Origin: Planctomycetaceae bacterium
GTDB taxonomy: Bacteria > Planctomycetota > Phycisphaerae > Phycisphaerales > SM1A02
Reading direction: 5' to 3'
NCBI GenBank assembly: GCA_027483065.1
Contig: JAIXVI010000304.1
Location: 1 to 58,139 of the forward strand
DNA length: 58,139 nucleotides
Both the position numbers and the translations under genes were made by a program. The notes beneath the pieces are model-generated. The model was not told where the DNA came from. It searched no databases and worked only from the letters and a program-made list of their open reading frames with translations. Shown here in pieces: positions 18,553 to 24,793 of this stretch. Each line of letters begins with the position of its first letter. Position 1 is the stretch's first letter.

Positions 18553-20682
18553 TCAGCGGCAGCAGCCGGTTTGCCACATGACAAACGACCACTGGTCCAC
18601 TTCGTCCTCGATGCGCTTCGCAAGTGGCTTTCCTTGGCCGTGTCCTGCGTCACGATCGACCCACAGCATGATTGGTTTGGTCGTGACGTCGTTCGCGGCG
18701 CGCTCTTGGACGCGCGCGACAAACTTCCGTGCGTGCAACGGGTGAACGCGCGAATCATTCTCGCCCGCGGTCACCAAAAGCGCGGGGTACTGCACACCCG
18801 ACTTGATGTTGTGATAGGGCGAGTACGCGTAGAGCCACTTGAATTCATCGGCGTTTTCACTCGATCCGTACTCCGGCGTCCAGTAGCGCGCGATGAGGAA
18901 ATCTTGGAAGCGGATCATGTCGAGAAGCGGCACACCGACAATCGCGGCAGCGAAAAGATCGGGTCGTTGCGTGCTCGCGACGCCAGTCAAGAGACCGCCG
19001 TTCGAGCCACCTTCAATCGCAAGATGCGCGGGGCTCGTGTACTTCTCAGCGATGAGCCACTCCGCACACGCGTAGAAGTCGTCGTAGACATTCTGCTTGT
19101 TTCCGCGCATACCAGCGCGGTGCCAATCCTCACCGTACTCGCCGCCGCCGCGAAGATTGGCGACGACATAAACGCCGCCAGCGTCAAGCCATGGAACAAT
19201 CGACGGATTGAACGCCGGCGTCAGTGAAACGTTGAAGCCACCGTAGCCGTAGAGCAGCGTGGGATTCGCGCCGTTGCGAGGCATGTCCTTCTTGCGAACG
19301 ATGAACATCGGCACCTTCGTGCCATCTTTCGAAGTCGCGCGGACTTGCTCCACGGTGTACTTCGAAAGATCTCCGGGCACCTTGGTTTCAGCCCAGACGC
19401 GCATCTTTGGATGAATGACGTTGGTTTGATAAATCGTGCGCGGCGCGTCGTAGCTCGTGTAGGTGACGAACGCTTCTGCGCGGCGGTGATCGGTGGAAAC
19501 GCTCGCAGTTCCAAGGCCTGGAAGTGGAATTTCTCGCAGAACCTTGCCGTCGAACGACATCACTTCGAAACGCGAGCAGACGTCTTTCGACCAACTCGTG
19601 ACGAAGCAGTCCTTCGCGATCGAAACACCCTCGAGCACCATGTCGCTGCGCTCCGCGAGGATCGTTTTCCAATTCGCGCGCTCGGGCTTCGCGAGATCAA
19701 TCGCGACAACGCTTCCCTTGGGAGAGCCGAAGCTCGTTGTGATGAAGAGCGTGTTTCCGATGACGTCGATCGGATCGAAGCGTCCATCGAGGCCTTCCGC
19801 GAGCACCGTCTTGCGCAGTTCACCCTTCTCAAGCCAAGGGGCCATCGGCGCAATCCAAAGATCATTCGCTTGCCAACCCTTGGAGAGGCTGCCAAGGAGC
19901 CACTTGCCATCGGTCGATGGGCCTGCGCCTGGGATTTCGCTTGGATTCGTTTGCTTGACGACGATCGCGTCCTTTGCGACGTCGCTGCCGATCATGTGAA
20001 AGCGCGTTTCGCGGGAATACGGATCCTTCACATCACGCAACGCTGAGTAGAAGAAACTCTTCCCGTCGGGCATCCATCCGGAGAAACTCACTTTGCCTGC
20101 GATGGTGTCAGAGAGCCACTTTCCTGAGGAAACATCGAGAATCTGCAATTGGCTCATCTCGCTGCCCTTTTGCGAGGTGCCGAATGCCATGAGCGTGCCT
20201 TGCTCATTCGGACGCCACCAATCGAGGCTCGTGAGACCCTTTACGTCGAGCGTGTTGACGTCAAGCAGCGTGCGCGGTTCGCCGTAGGCTTCGGCGCGGA
20301 ACTGAACAACTGCTTGATTCTGCGTACCGCTCCGCTCGGAATAGAAGTAGCCCGCGTCGGTCATCGTCGGTGCGCCAACCGCGCCGAGCGTCATCCACGG
20401 CTCGAGTGCCTTCGTGAGTTGTTCGCGGCAGGGAAGCGAGCCGAGGACTTCCTTCGTGTAGTTGTTCTGCGTGGTCGTCCACGCTTCCACTTCCGGCGAG
20501 TCCTTTTCGAGCGGCTCGAGCCAACGGTAATCGTCGGTGATGGCAACGCCGTGGACGGTGTCGACGACGGGAGCCTTCTTCGTTGCTGGAGGAGTGGCGG
20601 TCATGCGAATCGGAGTGTTGCTCGCGCAGCCAAGGATCAGCGCTGGTGCGAGCGAGAGTGCGAGAAAGCGTGGCGTTTGCAT
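18553..20682 (-). CDS. Prolyl oligopeptidase (S9A), lipoprotein-type leader
   Basis: DDYRWLE N-terminal signature, beta-propeller region, and GGSNGGLL catalytic serine motif. LILGC resembles a lipobox. Confidence 0.85.
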   Translation of the reverse strand: MQTPRFLALSLAPALILGCASNTPIRMTATPPATKKAPVVDTVHGVAITDDYRWLEPLEKDSPEVEAWTTTQNNYTKEVLGSLPCREQLTKALEPWMTLGAVGAPTMTDAGYFYSERSGTQNQAVVQFRAEAYGEPRTLLDVNTLDVKGLTSLDWWRPNEQGTLMAFGTSQKGSEMSQLQILDVSSGKWLSDTIAGKVSFSGWMPDGKSFFYSALRDVKDPYSRETRFHMIGSDVAKDAIVVKQTNPSEIPGAGPSTDGKWLLGSLSKGWQANDLWIAPMAPWLEKGELRKTVLAEGLDGRFDPIDVIGNTLFITTSFGSPKGSVVAIDLAKPERANWKTILAERSDMVLEGVSIAKDCFVTSWSKDVCSRFEVMSFDGKVLREIPLPGLGTASVSTDHRRAEAFVTYTSYDAPRTIYQTNVIHPKMRVWAETKVPGDLSKYTVEQVRATSKDGTKVPMFIVRKKDMPRNGANPTLLYGYGGFNVSLTPAFNPSIVPWLDAGGVYVVANLRGGGEYGEDWHRAGMRGNKQNVYDDFYACAEWLIAEKYTSPAHLAIEGGSNGGLLTGVASTQRPDLFAAAIVGVPLLDMIRFQDFLIARYWTPEYGSSENADEFKWLYAYSPYHNIKSGVQYPALLVTAGENDSRVHPLHARKFVARVQERAANDVTTKPIMLWVDRDAGHGQGKPLAKRIEDEVDQWSFVMWQTGCCR

Positions 20683-21569: not shown

Positions 21570-21664
21570 GGGAGGGGAAATGTACCCGTTCCCGCTGGGG
21601 AAAACCGCGGATCTTCGCGTTGCCGTTGGCGCCGTGCACTGCGTGGAATCGCGCGATTTGAGCC

Positions 21665-21729
21665 AAAAATGACATCGCCGTAAAAATGACATGGCCCAAA
21701 AATGACATCGCCTAAAAATGACATCGCCT
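21665..21729. promoter_or_regulatory. AT-rich 16-nt direct repeat x4 (aaaaatgacatcgcct), iteron/operator-like, upstream of map
   Basis: Direct reading: four head-to-tail units, two of them identical. They lie ~95 nt upstream of the map start. A perfect 12-bp palindrome aatcgcgcgatt sits at 21647-21658. Confidence 0.55.
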
Positions 21730-21784
21730 CGGAATCCTCCGGGCGATGTCGCGTGGTGGATGGACTGTCTGGCGCTTGCCGAGG

Positions 21785-22726
21785 TCAGGCGACCGTGCGG
21801 ACCTTCATCGTTGGTCCGCAGTTTGTCGTCGTGCCGCAGGTGCCGTTGTTCGTGTTGCCGGAATTCGTGTTGCAGCCGAAGTTCGACTCGTGATTGGTCG
21901 GCGTGTAGTTGTTCGGCGTGTTGCCGTTCCACGTGTTGTTCGTGTTGACGTTGCCGTTCCAACTATTGCCGTTCCAGCCGTTGCCGTTCCAGCCGTTGGT
22001 CTCGGTACCGTTGTTGCCCGTGAAGTTCGACGAGGTGTTGCCGTACCAGCCGTTGTTCCAGTTGGTGAACGGCGTGTTCACTGGTGCGTTGAACCAAGGG
22101 TTCGTCGCAGCGAACTGACTCCATGCGTTGAACCAGTTCCACGCGGTGTTGTTCCACGCGTTGTTGTTCCAAGCAGAGTTGTTCCACGCGTTGTTGTTCC
22201 AGCTGTTGTTCGTCCACGGCGTATTCCCGCCGTTGAAGTTCGGGAAGGTGTTTCCGCTGTTGAACCACGTTCCGGTCCACGGCGTGTTCCAGCCATTGAA
22301 GAACGTGTTCGGCGCGAAACCGTTGAAGCCGTTCCAACCATGGAAGCCGTTGAAGTTGTTCGAATTCCACGGCGTGTTCCAGCCGTTGAAGCCACCATTC
22401 AAACCGTTGTAGTGACCGAAGCCACCGAAGCTGTTCGTCCACGGATTCGCGTGGAACGCGTTCGTGCGGTTCCAGTTGTTGCTGTTCCAGTTGTTGTTGA
22501 AACTCGCGTTGTTGAACCAGGCGTTCGTCCACGGCGTGTTGCCGCCGAAGAAGTTCGCGAAGTTCGGATTCCAACCGTTGTTCCAACCGTTGTTCCAGCC
22601 GCCAGTCGGTGTGCCGTTCTGGAAACCGTTGCCGCCGCAGCAGTCGCTGCTCTCGAAGCCTGGGCAGTTGTTGCAAGTATTCGAAGGCGTAAAGGGCGAC
22701 CAGCCGTTCGGCATCGTGTTGTACAT
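21785..22726 (-). CDS. Asn/Trp/Gly/Phe-rich low-complexity protein of unknown function
   Basis: ATG at 22726 is preceded by GGAG at about -10. This frame has consistently G/C-ending codons (AAC, TGG, GGC, TTC, ACG, CCG). All other frames are also open, but only because the repetitive DNA lacks stop triplets. Start chosen to avoid overlap with hutI. Confidence 0.6.
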   Translation of the reverse strand: MYNTMPNGWSPFTPSNTCNNCPGFESSDCCGGNGFQNGTPTGGWNNGWNNGWNPNFANFFGGNTPWTNAWFNNASFNNNWNSNNWNRTNAFHANPWTNSFGGFGHYNGLNGGFNGWNTPWNSNNFNGFHGWNGFNGFAPNTFFNGWNTPWTGTWFNSGNTFPNFNGGNTPWTNNSWNNNAWNNSAWNNNAWNNTAWNWFNAWSQFAATNPWFNAPVNTPFTNWNNGWYGNTSSNFTGNNGTETNGWNGNGWNGNSWNGNVNTNNTWNGNTPNNYTPTNHESNFGCNTNSGNTNNGTCGTTTNCGPTMKVRTVA

Positions 22727-22889
22727 GTGAAACTCCGTGGGGACTCTTCGCGCGCCGCGGACCAACCCGCGACCATTGCGTGGCGCAGGGATCGGGCAAC
22801 TCGTGGCGCGACTTTGGTCACCGCTTCGAAAGTTTGGGAAATGACGATTGTGCGGGCAGTCGCCGCGCAGGAATTGCGCTTCAGCGCGA

Positions 22890-24164
22890 TCAGAACAAGA
22901 GTGCGTGACCGGCGAAGACTTCAATCGGTTCAGACATCGCCCACTCGCAGGCGAGTGCGCGCTCGTCGTGCGTCGGAAGCAGGACGAAATGCGCGCGTTT
23001 TCCGACTTCGATCGAGCCGGTTTCGTGCTCGATGCCGAGGACGCACGCGGCGTTGTAGGTTGCGGCAGTGATTGCTTCCGCAGGCGTGAGTCCGCAGAAA
23101 CGCGCCGCGAGCGCGATGATGAGAGGCATCGAGACGATCGGGCTTGAACCTGGATTACAGTTGGTTGCGATCGCGACAGCAGCGCCTTCGTCGATGAGAA
23201 GCCGACCGTTCGCGTAGCGGCCATCGAGCGTTAACCCGCAACCTGGCAGAAGCACCGCCGTCGATTGTGATCGCGCGACGCGTGTGAGCCCATCGCGCGA
23301 TGTTGCCTCAAGGTGATCAACGCTGCGCGCACCCATTTCCAAAGCTGTCTCGAGGAATCCAAGTTCGTTGAATTGATCGACGTGCACGCGCAGCGGGCAA
23401 CCGAGTGCCTGCGCGCGTTCGAAAAGGCGCTTCGTCCATGCGGGACTCCACGCGCTCTTCTCGCAATAGGCGTCGCACGCGATCGGCCCGAACTCTGCGA
23501 CGACTTCAGGCAAGAGTTCCTCGATCACGCGCGTGCAATACGCCGTCTCGTCGCCGTCGATTGCGTGTGCGCCGAGAAATGTCGGCACGAAGAAGCCGTC
23601 TCCATCGTGCTCGGCGTTGTTTCCGTGTGCGCGCACCGCTCTGAGCATTTCAAGCTCGGTCACGCGATCGAGGCCGTAGCCCGACTTCACCTCGATCGCG
23701 AGGCTGCCACGGCGGCGCATTTCATCAGTACGGCGTGCGAGGATGCGAAGGAGTCCTTCGCCGAGTGGATCGTTCGCAAACGCGTCGCGCGTGGCGCGCA
23801 CGGTGGACATGATGCCGCCGCCGCGCGCAAGAATGTCGAGATAGGGGACTCCCGCGAGTCGCTCGGCCACTTCCGCGTATCGGTTGCCGCCCCAGCACGC
23901 ATGCGTGTGGCAATCGACGAAGGCGGGCATCAAGACGCGGCCCTGCGAGTCGCACCACGCGGCCTTGATATTCGCGGGCGGATCGCCCGCACCAACCGCT
24001 GCGATACGGCCGTTGAGCGTGTGCACGTAGCCGCGCTCGATGACGCCGAGTTCGCGCATGGCATATCCACGGCGTGGACCTGCACCGTTCGACGCATCAC
24101 CGCGCGGAGTCGGTTGCGCAAGCGTGAGAATGCGAGCGTTTGTGAAGAGAACCTCGGACGCCAT
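22890..24164 (-). CDS. hutI: Imidazolonepropionase
   Basis: FVDCHTHACWGGNR (HxH metal site), GGGIMSTVRATR, HVDQF and TNCNPGSSP blocks are typical of HutI amidohydrolases. Start set at ATG 24164 (MASEVLFTNARIL). Confidence 0.85.
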   Translation of the reverse strand: MASEVLFTNARILTLAQPTPRGDASNGAGPRRGYAMRELGVIERGYVHTLNGRIAAVGAGDPPANIKAAWCDSQGRVLMPAFVDCHTHACWGGNRYAEVAERLAGVPYLDILARGGGIMSTVRATRDAFANDPLGEGLLRILARRTDEMRRRGSLAIEVKSGYGLDRVTELEMLRAVRAHGNNAEHDGDGFFVPTFLGAHAIDGDETAYCTRVIEELLPEVVAEFGPIACDAYCEKSAWSPAWTKRLFERAQALGCPLRVHVDQFNELGFLETALEMGARSVDHLEATSRDGLTRVARSQSTAVLLPGCGLTLDGRYANGRLLIDEGAAVAIATNCNPGSSPIVSMPLIIALAARFCGLTPAEAITAATYNAACVLGIEHETGSIEVGKRAHFVLLPTHDERALACEWAMSEPIEVFAGHALLF

Positions 24165-24256
24165 GCGGCGATTGTCGCAGATTCGGGCCAATCGGCTACT
24201 GTGCGGCGGTTGTTGTTCGCATGGTTGTCGCTCGCTCGTGTTCCGTGAGGTTTCCG

Positions 24257-24793
24257 ATGGAACTGATTCTCGTCCGTCACGCCAAGGCTTTCGACCGCGA
24301 CGCATCGGCGTGGCCTGACGACAGTCGGCGTCCGCTCACGGCGGAAGGCCGCGAGCAATTCGCGCGTTTCGCCAAGCGTTTACGACGACTCGTCCCAAGC
24401 GTCGATCTTGTCGAGTCGAGCGGATTTGTCCGCGCTTGGCAGACGGCGATGTTGCTCGAAGAACATGCGCGGTGGCCCAAGCCCGCGCGACTCGAACGCC
24501 TCGAGGCGCGAGACAACGCAGAAGACGAAGCAGCGCAACTCAGCGCCATGCTGCGCACGATTGCGGCGCTGCGTGCGATTCCAGTGGTTGTCTGGGTTGG
24601 CCACGAGCCGTCGCTTTCGCGCTTCGCGTCGCTGCTTCTCACAGGCTCGGCAGATGCGATGTCGATCGACTTTCGCAAAGGTGCAGCACTGTCGCTCGAA
24701 ATCGATTCAAGCCGCGAGCGCGACGATCTTCCGCGTGCGCGATTTCGTTGGATGCTGACGCCAAACGTTGCGCGGCGCATTACGAAGCGTTAA
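24257..24793 (+). CDS. sixA: Phosphohistidine phosphatase SixA-like (histidine phosphatase superfamily)
   Basis: MELILVRHAKA (RHG-type motif) and VVWVGHEPSLS (second His motif), with SixA-like length. Confidence 0.7.
   Translation: MELILVRHAKAFDRDASAWPDDSRRPLTAEGREQFARFAKRLRRLVPSVDLVESSGFVRAWQTAMLLEEHARWPKPARLERLEARDNAEDEAAQLSAMLRTIAALRAIPVVVWVGHEPSLSRFASLLLTGSADAMSIDFRKGAALSLEIDSSRERDDLPRARFRWMLTPNVARRITKR

Follow-up and report, generated by a model that had tools for sequence, protein, structure and literature searches.

What is encoded by a stretch of DNA that is open in almost every reading frame and that translates, in one of them, into little else than asparagine, glycine, threonine, tryptophan, phenylalanine and proline, and what could such a protein do? 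The question is raised by a locus in contig JAIXVI010000304.1 of a Planctomycetaceae bacterium (assembly GCA_027483065.1), nucleotides (nt) 1 to 58,139 of which were analysed and are here called the window. The coding sequence at 21785..22726 on the reverse strand, with its stop codon at 21785-21787, was delineated by translation, codon evidence and orthologues, and encodes a protein of 313 amino acids. It contains 92 Asn (29.4%), 30 Trp (9.6%), 27 Phe (8.6%), 43 Gly, 38 Thr and 19 Pro residues, two Gln, one each of Leu, Lys and Asp, and no Ile. Compared with 12 other genes of the window, which have on average 3.2% Asn and 1.8% Trp, the excess is about nine-fold for Asn and five-fold for Trp. 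Only seven of the 313 residues are charged (K, R, D or E), the net charge being -1, and the seven Cys are at residues 18, 21, 29, 30, 285, 297 and 303.

Re-translation reproduced exactly the sequence, composition and Cys count given in a preliminary description of this DNA. The AWNN and GWNG runs listed there are also present, at residues 178-203 and 244-259. The motif G(G/W)NTPW(T/N)xxxFN, said to occur at least four times, was found in part: G[GW]NTPW[TN] does occur four times (residues 61, 115, 145 and 166), with an NTPF variant at residue 217, but xxxFN follows only three of the four, the remaining one being followed by xxxWN. The claim that there is no signal peptide or transmembrane segment holds, since the maximal Kyte-Doolittle mean over 19 residues is -0.08 and the grand average of hydropathy is -1.09. 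No second copy of the gene was found within the window.

Several frames are open across the gene region, including a 441-residue open reading frame (ORF) on the opposite strand, and thus the frame of 21785-22726 (-) needed proof. The openness of almost every frame is due to the codon composition of the Asn/Trp-rich gene; the extra long ORFs lie at 21746-23071 (+) (441 amino acids) and 21963-22799 (-) (278 amino acids). For codon comparison we used the closest full orthologue from the scan of genome collections (L002, 82% identical to the window). All six indels between the two genes are multiples of three (3, 12, 15, 15, 15 and 36 nt), substitutions at codon positions 1, 2 and 3 number 3, 7 and 23, respectively, and the differing codons are synonymous in 21 cases and non-synonymous in 11. 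The GC content of third codon positions (GC3) reaches 0.863 in the Asn/Trp frame only; the map and amidohydrolase genes on either side have 0.66-0.69. The gene also keeps more closely to preferred codons than the 12 background genes do (AAC 89% vs 73%, TTC 96% vs 78%, CCG 68% vs 40%). Translation of another frame, an alternative considered in the preliminary description, was checked in the 16 complete orthologues, and the Asn/Trp frame is the sole one without stops in all of them; the codon-aligned antisense frame is usually open and is interrupted in L006 and L016. The protein termini are kept where the identity of flanking DNA is 75%. Given the in-frame indels, third-position substitutions, GC3 and absence of stops in 16 orthologues, the Asn/Trp frame is, on codon evidence, translated and under purifying selection, and the gene truly codes for a protein.

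Both gene callers and assemblers cope poorly with this gene. One public product among the relatives is frame-scrambled (P0002), and within their repeats the assemblies of L004 and L007 are frameshifted or interrupted by runs of N. L004 and L007 still end in the conserved tail described below, which points to assembly errors within repeats. There is no record of the window's own 313-residue product in the protein collection searched.

The family was collected by pattern scans of genome and metagenome collections, complemented by a profile search, and has about 20 members of 171-430 amino acids, all annotated as hypothetical or unnamed. A word-indexed search returned a single match, P0001, that shares the first approximately 30 and the last eight residues with the window protein and differs in the middle. 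An exhaustive HMMER search of 1.84 billion representatives produced just two fragments and P0001. A profile of the terminal modules (alignment A8) had no match in a collection of 5.8 billion proteins, which is uninformative, as known members (E-values of 1e-9 to 1e-16 locally) were not returned either. No relatives were found in viral contigs. Nearly all members come from metagenome-assembled genomes (MAGs) labelled Phycisphaerae, Phycisphaerales, Phycisphaeraceae or Planctomycetaceae, Lake Mendota and ponds being the source of several; the family does not extend beyond a narrow clade of uncultured Phycisphaerales, most of them from fresh water. This survey of homologues and their neighbourhoods, suggested in the preliminary description, revealed the same gene order in every locus: STAS, His_Phos_1, an amidohydrolase (hutI-like), the Asn/Trp-rich gene, map (M24) and an S9 prolyl oligopeptidase. 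The position of the gene between hutI and map, as first described, is correct, with the amidohydrolase upstream and the M24 map gene downstream. The map proteins are 87-99% identical across loci, and therefore the clade is narrow and the synteny tells little about function.

The conserved parts of the protein are its two termini and not the repeats, a feature that the preliminary description had overlooked. The N-terminal module, residues 1-34 (22625..22726 (-); alignments A4, A7 and A8), reads MYNTMPNGWSP-x6-C-x2-C-P-G-F-E-S-S-D-C-C-G-G in the window protein. The family consensus is M-Y-N-T-(M/T)-P-N-G-W-S-P, a short variable linker, and C-x2-C-P-G-(F/L)-(D/E)-S-S-D-C-C-G-G, where G8, W9, C18, C21, P22, S26, D28, C29, C30 and G31 are invariant in all members of these alignments. 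By inspection, a double-glycine leader ending in DCCGG was rejected: the hydrophobic leader pattern is absent and the GG is not invariant (CCGNG in P0009). The C-terminal module, residues 280-313 (21788..21889 (-); alignment A8), has the pattern C-x11-C-x5-C-G-P-T followed by the tail MKVRTVA (21788-21808). In the family, two or three C-terminal Cys are usual, arranged as (C)C-x5-C or C-x11-C-x5-C and separated from the tail by a Gly/Pro turn. Every one of the 18 loci that extend to the 3' end carries the pattern [MV][KR]VR[ST]VA-stop, which is found on no other ORF in the 246 kb of sequence scanned. The tail in its MKVRSVA form presumably resembles the N-terminus of ribosomal protein L36, although seven residues are too few to test this and the gene order does not fit. 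Total Cys numbers are odd in many members (7, 5, 11 and 13). The second clade of the family has an additional charged helix, and its C-terminal region is of greater complexity.

Between the two modules is a hypervariable low-complexity core, residues 35-279 (21890..22624 (-)), built of tandem units of four or five residues, WNNG, AWNNx and GWNGN, together with (G/W)NTPW; at the DNA level Tandem Repeats Finder detects periods of 12 and 15 nt. Across the family the core spans 100-350 residues and cannot be aligned between clades, the N/W/F/G/T/P alphabet being retained. The repeat units differ from member to member: ATPWN in five or six copies, NGWNNTPNTNWN in five, long (N)GF runs, or a 22-residue unit with 12 copies in L018 and five in P0008 between the same flanks. 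Copy numbers change even between near-identical strains: L014, 95% identical to the window protein, has six copies of WNNG where the latter has three. The unit length is not conserved across the family, and the AWNNx five-residue run is not among the conserved features of the orthologues. The suggestion that the composition is under selection is thus borne out: orthologous cores that cannot be aligned keep the N/W/F/G/T/P bias, the near-zero charge and evenly placed aromatic residues, and the codons are used more strictly than in the background.

The same physical character is seen throughout the family. The net charge is between -2 and 0 in all 18 full-length members, and W, F and Y make up 11-22% of residues in these members. 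PW dipeptides number 6-25 per member; the window protein has 4 FG, 7 GF and 19 WN, and L011 has 27 GF. In 2000, Michelitsch and Weissman reportedly set the threshold of their prion-like census at about 30 or more Q/N per 80 residues. The window protein is at this threshold, with a maximum of 29 Q+N per 80 residues, and the 18 members range from 19 to 35.

No described family accommodates these proteins, in agreement with the preliminary description. The window protein had no match in Pfam and NCBIfam at E≤10, and seven other members gave one weak compositional match to Collagen in Pfam (E 0.03, below cut-off). PADLOC returned no matches and PHROGs only weak compositional ones; sequence and profile searches of the PDB with the window protein and up to seven relatives yielded nothing significant. 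No description of this family was found in the literature on Asn/Trp-rich bacterial or planctomycete proteins. By these searches it is an undescribed orphan family, fitting none of those in Pfam, NCBIfam, PADLOC, PHROGs and the PDB.

We tentatively favour the reading that the protein is a cohesive sticker-and-spacer disordered chain, similar to an Asn-rich phenylalanine-glycine (FG) domain or a prion-like domain, whose ends would provide metal or redox capping as well as docking or turnover. The core would be intrinsically disordered, with Asn, Gly, Thr and Pro as spacers and Trp and Phe as stickers. Trp/Phe contacts and Asn hydrogen bonding would hold it to other copies of itself or to a multivalent partner. 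The outcome would be a dense intracellular gel, a condensate or an amyloid-like assembly. Since the core would be a sticker-and-spacer chain, selection would act on its composition, sticker spacing and length, leaving the exact sequence free. In a cytoplasmic protein, the Cys-bearing ends would most likely hold a small metal site or form redox-sensitive cross-links, thereby capping or linking the chains. The basic, β-strand-like tail MKVR[ST]VA, where hydrophobic and basic residues alternate, would be a docking or turnover signal for another protein; candidate readers are an anchor, a shell, a PDZ-type domain or a protease.

The proposed behaviour of the core has documented precedents: the hydrogels in which Asn-rich FG domains make β-sheet contacts (PMC8311347), and the selective phase of a Tyr/Gly-rich domain in peroxisomes (PMC9795577). 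In amyloid-prone prion-like domains Asn is the preferred spacer, aromatic residues favour assembly and charge inhibits it (PMC7865556). Propagation of prions occurs in bacteria (PMC10523482).

In favour of the sticker-and-spacer reading are the conserved ends around a core that cannot be aligned, the absence of a predicted fold, the near-zero charge, the abundance and even spacing of aromatic residues, the lack of a hydrophobic segment and the Q+N density. Several points limit it or weigh against it. AlphaFold2, given an alignment of nine sequences, assigned zero secondary structure to the window protein, with a mean predicted local distance difference test (pLDDT) score of 40.8, and one helix to P0001 of the second clade (mean pLDDT 39.7), but low scores from so small an alignment are not proof of disorder, and a repeat-based β-solenoid could be missed. 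The aromatic residues are more evenly spaced than in 500 shuffles per core (z = -3.76 for the window protein, -3.4 to -4.1 in its clade and -1.3 to -2.6 elsewhere); however, this evenness stems partly from the tandem-repeat origin of the core and therefore is not independent proof of selection. The Pro content of 6-13% disfavours classical amyloid. The strict conservation of the termini points to a specific partner or chemistry. A divergent member, P0009, has no C-terminal Cys, and thus end-to-end Cys pairing cannot be general. Finally, the neighbourhood consists of housekeeping genes and offers no functional hint.

One alternative is a matrix or adhesive protein, exported or placed on the cell surface, that would bind polysaccharide by Trp stacking and Asn hydrogen bonds. 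Trp and Asn are typical of carbohydrate-binding faces, and fast turnover of repeats is common in surface proteins. Export would follow a non-classical route reading the N- or the C-terminal module, both of which are conserved, as sorting signals are, and the Cys would form disulfides outside the cytoplasm. However, odd numbers of Cys misfit simple disulfide pairing, the protein has no signal peptide, lipobox or transmembrane segment (the hydropathy maximum being that given above), and no secretion genes are found among its neighbours in the window. The N-x-S/T sequons are divided: in the second clade they are mildly enriched (for instance, 15 observed in L001 vs 7.9±2.3 expected), whereas in the window's clade they are not (12 observed vs 15.2±3.1 expected), and there is no predicted fold with a binding face. 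Taken together, we consider export unlikely. A role as N-glycosylation substrate was rejected because sequons are not enriched in the window's clade.

The preliminary description had called aromatic plus Asn faces typical both of glycan-, ice- or crystal-binding surfaces and of amyloid- or condensate-forming low-complexity domains. A folded face of the first kind finds no support, there being no predicted fold and no sequon excess in the window's clade; an antifreeze or ice-binding face was rejected, at least one of its defining features being missing. The second kind is compatible with the absence of a fold and with the prion- and FG-like composition.

Another possibility is a functional amyloid or β-solenoid, in which the repeats would stack into an Asn ladder and aromatic ladders, as in curli CsgA or HET-s, producing a fibre and not a liquid or gel. 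The 12 copies of a 22-residue unit in L018 are in its favour, as the coils of known solenoid amyloids have 19-23 residues. High Asn content also favours amyloid (PMC7865556). Yet the repeats of the window protein are short (four or five residues) and irregular, repeat units contain two or three Pro, no β-structure appears in the AlphaFold2 model, and the unit length varies across the family. With neither a Sec signal nor curli- or Fap-type accessory genes among the neighbours in the window, this explanation is doubtful.

The protein could also be a substrate, a precursor similar to ribosomally synthesized and post-translationally modified peptides (RiPPs), that is cut into small Trp peptides, for instance after each Pro by the nearby S9 prolyl oligopeptidase, the N-terminus being the leader. 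The recurrent X-P-W motif (6-25 PW per member), the tandem identical units of some members, such as the five or six ATPWN, and the occurrence of the S9 gene two genes downstream in every locus would suit such a scheme. However, the fragments between Pro residues of the window protein are very unequal (from 3 to >50 residues), the S9 peptidase has a lipoprotein-type signal and thus probably belongs to another compartment, and synteny in so narrow a clade is a poor guide to function. The gene has no radical-SAM, cyclase, YcaO or ABC-exporter gene next to it. We regard this scheme as very improbable. A RiPP precursor proper was rejected, as no maturase, protease partner or exporter adjoins the gene beyond map and the signal-bearing S9 enzyme, which are the only peptidases nearby; no maturase-type gene was found for about 8 kb to each side of it in the window, nor among the called genes of L001, L012 and L013.

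That there is no functional protein at all, the ORF being a by-product of repetitive DNA or another open frame being the real gene, has next to no probability: the multiplicity of open frames, including the 441-residue ORF on the opposite strand, and the frame-scrambled entries P0002, L004 and L007 could be cited for it, but the in-frame indels, third-position substitutions, high GC3 in a single frame, lack of stops in 16 of 16 orthologues for this frame only (the antisense one being broken in L006 and L016), termini conserved at the protein level, and the recovery of the tail in L004 and L007 all argue otherwise.

The sticker-and-spacer reading may be carried one step further. The protein could be what a cohesive selective phase of aromatic repeats looks like in a bacterium, or a protein-based self-templating element: a cytoplasmic Trp/Phe-Asn gel, condensate or heritable aggregate of free-living Planctomycetota. 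Its invariant N-terminal Cys4 knuckle would be a metal or redox switch, and assembly would be controlled through the invariant tail MKVR[ST]VA, a handle for docking or degradation. We consider this extension unlikely.

The gene has regulatory signals of its own. The GGAG noted upstream of the ATG is indeed there, 6 nt before the ATG (22733..22736 (-)); this Shine-Dalgarno box is conserved as (C/T)GGAG in 13 of 14 aligned leaders. It belongs to a conserved upstream region at 22727..22817 (-) (alignments A3 and A9), an element of about 90 nt 5' of the ATG that is kept in about 14 distinct loci. The region starts with two boxes, CCAAAGTC and CCCGAT, separated by a spacer whose sequence is variable and whose length is constant at 13 nt. 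The boxes are followed by a conserved GC-rich leader of about 65 nt, CCTGCGCCACGC…GCGGG…TCCGCGGCGCGCG.AGAG, and then by the Shine-Dalgarno box. A fixed spacing with variable sequence between the boxes is promoter-like. A riboswitch or other structured RNA in the 5' leader was rejected: there was no Rfam match at E≤1, none of the 22 predicted pairs had compensatory changes, and the minimum free energy was no better than that of shuffles (z = +0.56). Since all three tests were negative, we read the upstream element as a sequence-specific promoter or operator element rather than a structured RNA. It may combine a promoter for an alternative sigma factor, perhaps of the extracytoplasmic function (ECF) type, with an operator. 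A search for a regulon found no similar leader or promoter-like motifs elsewhere in the window.

Downstream of the gene there is an intrinsic terminator at 21714..21750 (-), formed by the hairpin GACATCGCCCGGA-GGAT-TCCGAGGCGATGTC followed by ATTTTT; its fold is more stable than those of shuffled sequences (z = -3.26). The hairpin occupies the same position in all orthologous loci, its loop GGAGGATYCC is kept in nearly all, and the T-tract is next to it. The 3' arm and the T-tract have been multiplied. Tandem Repeats Finder reports an array at 21665..21729 (-) with period 16, 4.0 copies of the unit GGCGATGTCATTTTT and 89% matches. The preliminary description had taken this array for iteron-like, which we do not uphold: as its unit coincides with the arm and T-tract, the array is a duplication of a part of the gene's own terminator, the copy number is four in the window, three in L014, L015 and L016, two in L011 and one in L002 and all others, and there is no replication gene among the neighbours in the window. 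The array offers up to four alternative closing arms for the terminator hairpin.

Having a dedicated upstream element and terminator, the gene appears to be transcribed separately; both signals point to that. The gene may be highly expressed, to judge from its stricter choice of preferred codons and from a strong terminator of its own. Between this gene and the amidohydrolase, 11 nt past the stop codon of the latter, there is a palindrome GCGCA-N5-TGCGC (22865-22879), whose arms are almost invariant in 12 loci and whose 5-nt centre varies (AATTC or GAATC). It is not followed by a T-tract and so is not an obvious terminator, and read-through from the amidohydrolase gene may occur. The palindrome could be a protein-binding site.

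Of the neighbouring genes, the hutI-like amidohydrolase has its longest ORF at 22890-24305 (-), which overlaps the divergent His_Phos_1 ORF at 24221-24793 (+) by 85 nt. The first approximately 47 residues of the longest ORF are rich in Arg and Ser, and the true start is probably an internal Met (MASEVLF…), giving about 424 amino acids, close to the 418-447 called in relatives. The motif G-n-TACA-n-TTCC or GCTACAGTYCCGC is found directly 5' of the map start in all loci (21570-21590 in the window; L001, L006, L008-L013 and L021) and may be a translation or promoter signal of map. The S9 prolyl oligopeptidase (18553-20682 (-)) has a lipoprotein-type N-terminal signal, MQTPRFLALSLAPALILGCASN (…LILGCASN); because of this signal the enzyme is likely exported and separated from the Asn/Trp-rich protein by compartment. 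The six-gene Phycisphaerales block also occurs on two contigs assigned to other phyla, L007 (JASGCF010000033.1, 'Limnohabitans sp.') and L008 (CAYMSD010000003.1, 'uncultured Klebsiella sp.'). As their flanking genes, map included, are 88-92% identical to those of the other loci, these contigs were probably mis-binned into the respective MAGs.

If the sticker-and-spacer reading is true, the protein would be among the most extreme natural proteins of this type, in that approximately 20% of its residues are aromatic, 30% are Asn and almost none are charged, and it would be a whole stand-alone bacterial protein. It would then give the biology of bacterial condensates and prions a Trp-based example, and the orthologues would constitute a natural series in which the identity (Trp vs Phe), spacing and valence of stickers could be related to material properties. 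The two new short modules, C-x2-C-P-G-x5-D-C-C-G and the C-terminal MKVR[ST]VA, would be starting points in the search for partners. Otherwise, the locus is a clean case of a lineage-restricted orphan gene that is easily mis-framed by gene callers, since hardly any frame is closed. Low-complexity orphans restricted to one lineage are not uncommon, and the restriction of the family to one narrow uncultured clade limits the reach of either conclusion.

Among known systems, several share the general plan of the protein or a part of it. Five AWNNx units of the window protein recall the pentapeptide-repeat proteins (PF00805), but the register is different: in the window protein Ala directly precedes the aromatic residue instead of standing two residues before it. 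A pentapeptide-repeat β-helix was rejected, with no match to PF00805 at E≤10, no β-helix in the model and no conservation of the run in orthologues. Curli CsgA and other β-solenoid amyloids have Asn/Gly-rich imperfect tandem repeats, as does the family, up to the 22-residue unit of L018. Unlike them, the family lacks a Sec signal, csg- or fap-type genes (none are among the neighbours in the window), a conserved repeat length and predicted β-structure. A curli-type amyloid was thus rejected, given also the absence of a hydrophobic N-terminus, the repeat periods of four or five residues in the window protein and the lack of dedicated secretion or nucleator genes nearby.

In cnidarian minicollagens, which are secreted and oxidised, a repetitive middle of biased composition is flanked on either side by a short conserved module rich in Cys. 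The family has the same general plan, which suggests cross-linking end to end. However, sequence, Cys pattern and organism are unrelated, and the family has no export signal.

The Q/N-rich prion-like domains, exemplified by yeast Sup35 and Ure2 and by the candidates Rho and SSB (single-stranded DNA-binding protein) of Clostridium botulinum, are similarly rich in Asn and poor in charged and aliphatic residues, and contain aromatic residues and oligopeptide repeats; in many family members Q+N amounts to 29-35 per 80 residues. The window protein, with seven K/R/D/E, no Ile, one Leu and a pLDDT of about 40, has few charged and aliphatic residues and is predicted to be disordered. On the other hand, the family protein is of low complexity as a whole, with no attached functional domain to be switched. 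It has almost no Gln (two residues), roughly twice as many aromatic residues and abundant Pro, and its Trp is rare in known prion domains.

The FG domains (the N-terminal part of Nsp1 and the GLFG domains of Nup100 and Nup116), together with the Tyr/Gly-rich domain of PEX13, are likewise depleted of charge, probably disordered, and have aromatic residues regularly placed between Asn, Gly, Thr and Ser spacers. The window protein carries multiple aromatic-Gly motifs on a charge-poor, N/Q/S/T-rich chain. Some orthologues, such as L011 with its 27 GF, consist largely of (N)GF repeats, and here too composition is kept while sequence is not. The differences are that the main aromatic residue of the window protein is Trp and not Phe or Tyr, that the family is bacterial and has no homology to these domains, and that its Cys-bearing terminal modules and C-terminal heptapeptide have no counterpart there. 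Pfam detected no nucleoporin domain, either in the window protein or in seven other members, AlphaFold2 predicted no folded anchor domain, and no pore scaffold is known; the resemblance to FG domains is therefore functional at most. The likeness to FG or prion-like domains would concern, at most, the way of working, and implies no family membership. Compared with both, the family is, judged by its sequences, distinct: a stand-alone bacterial protein with Trp as the main sticker, almost no Gln and two conserved terminal modules.

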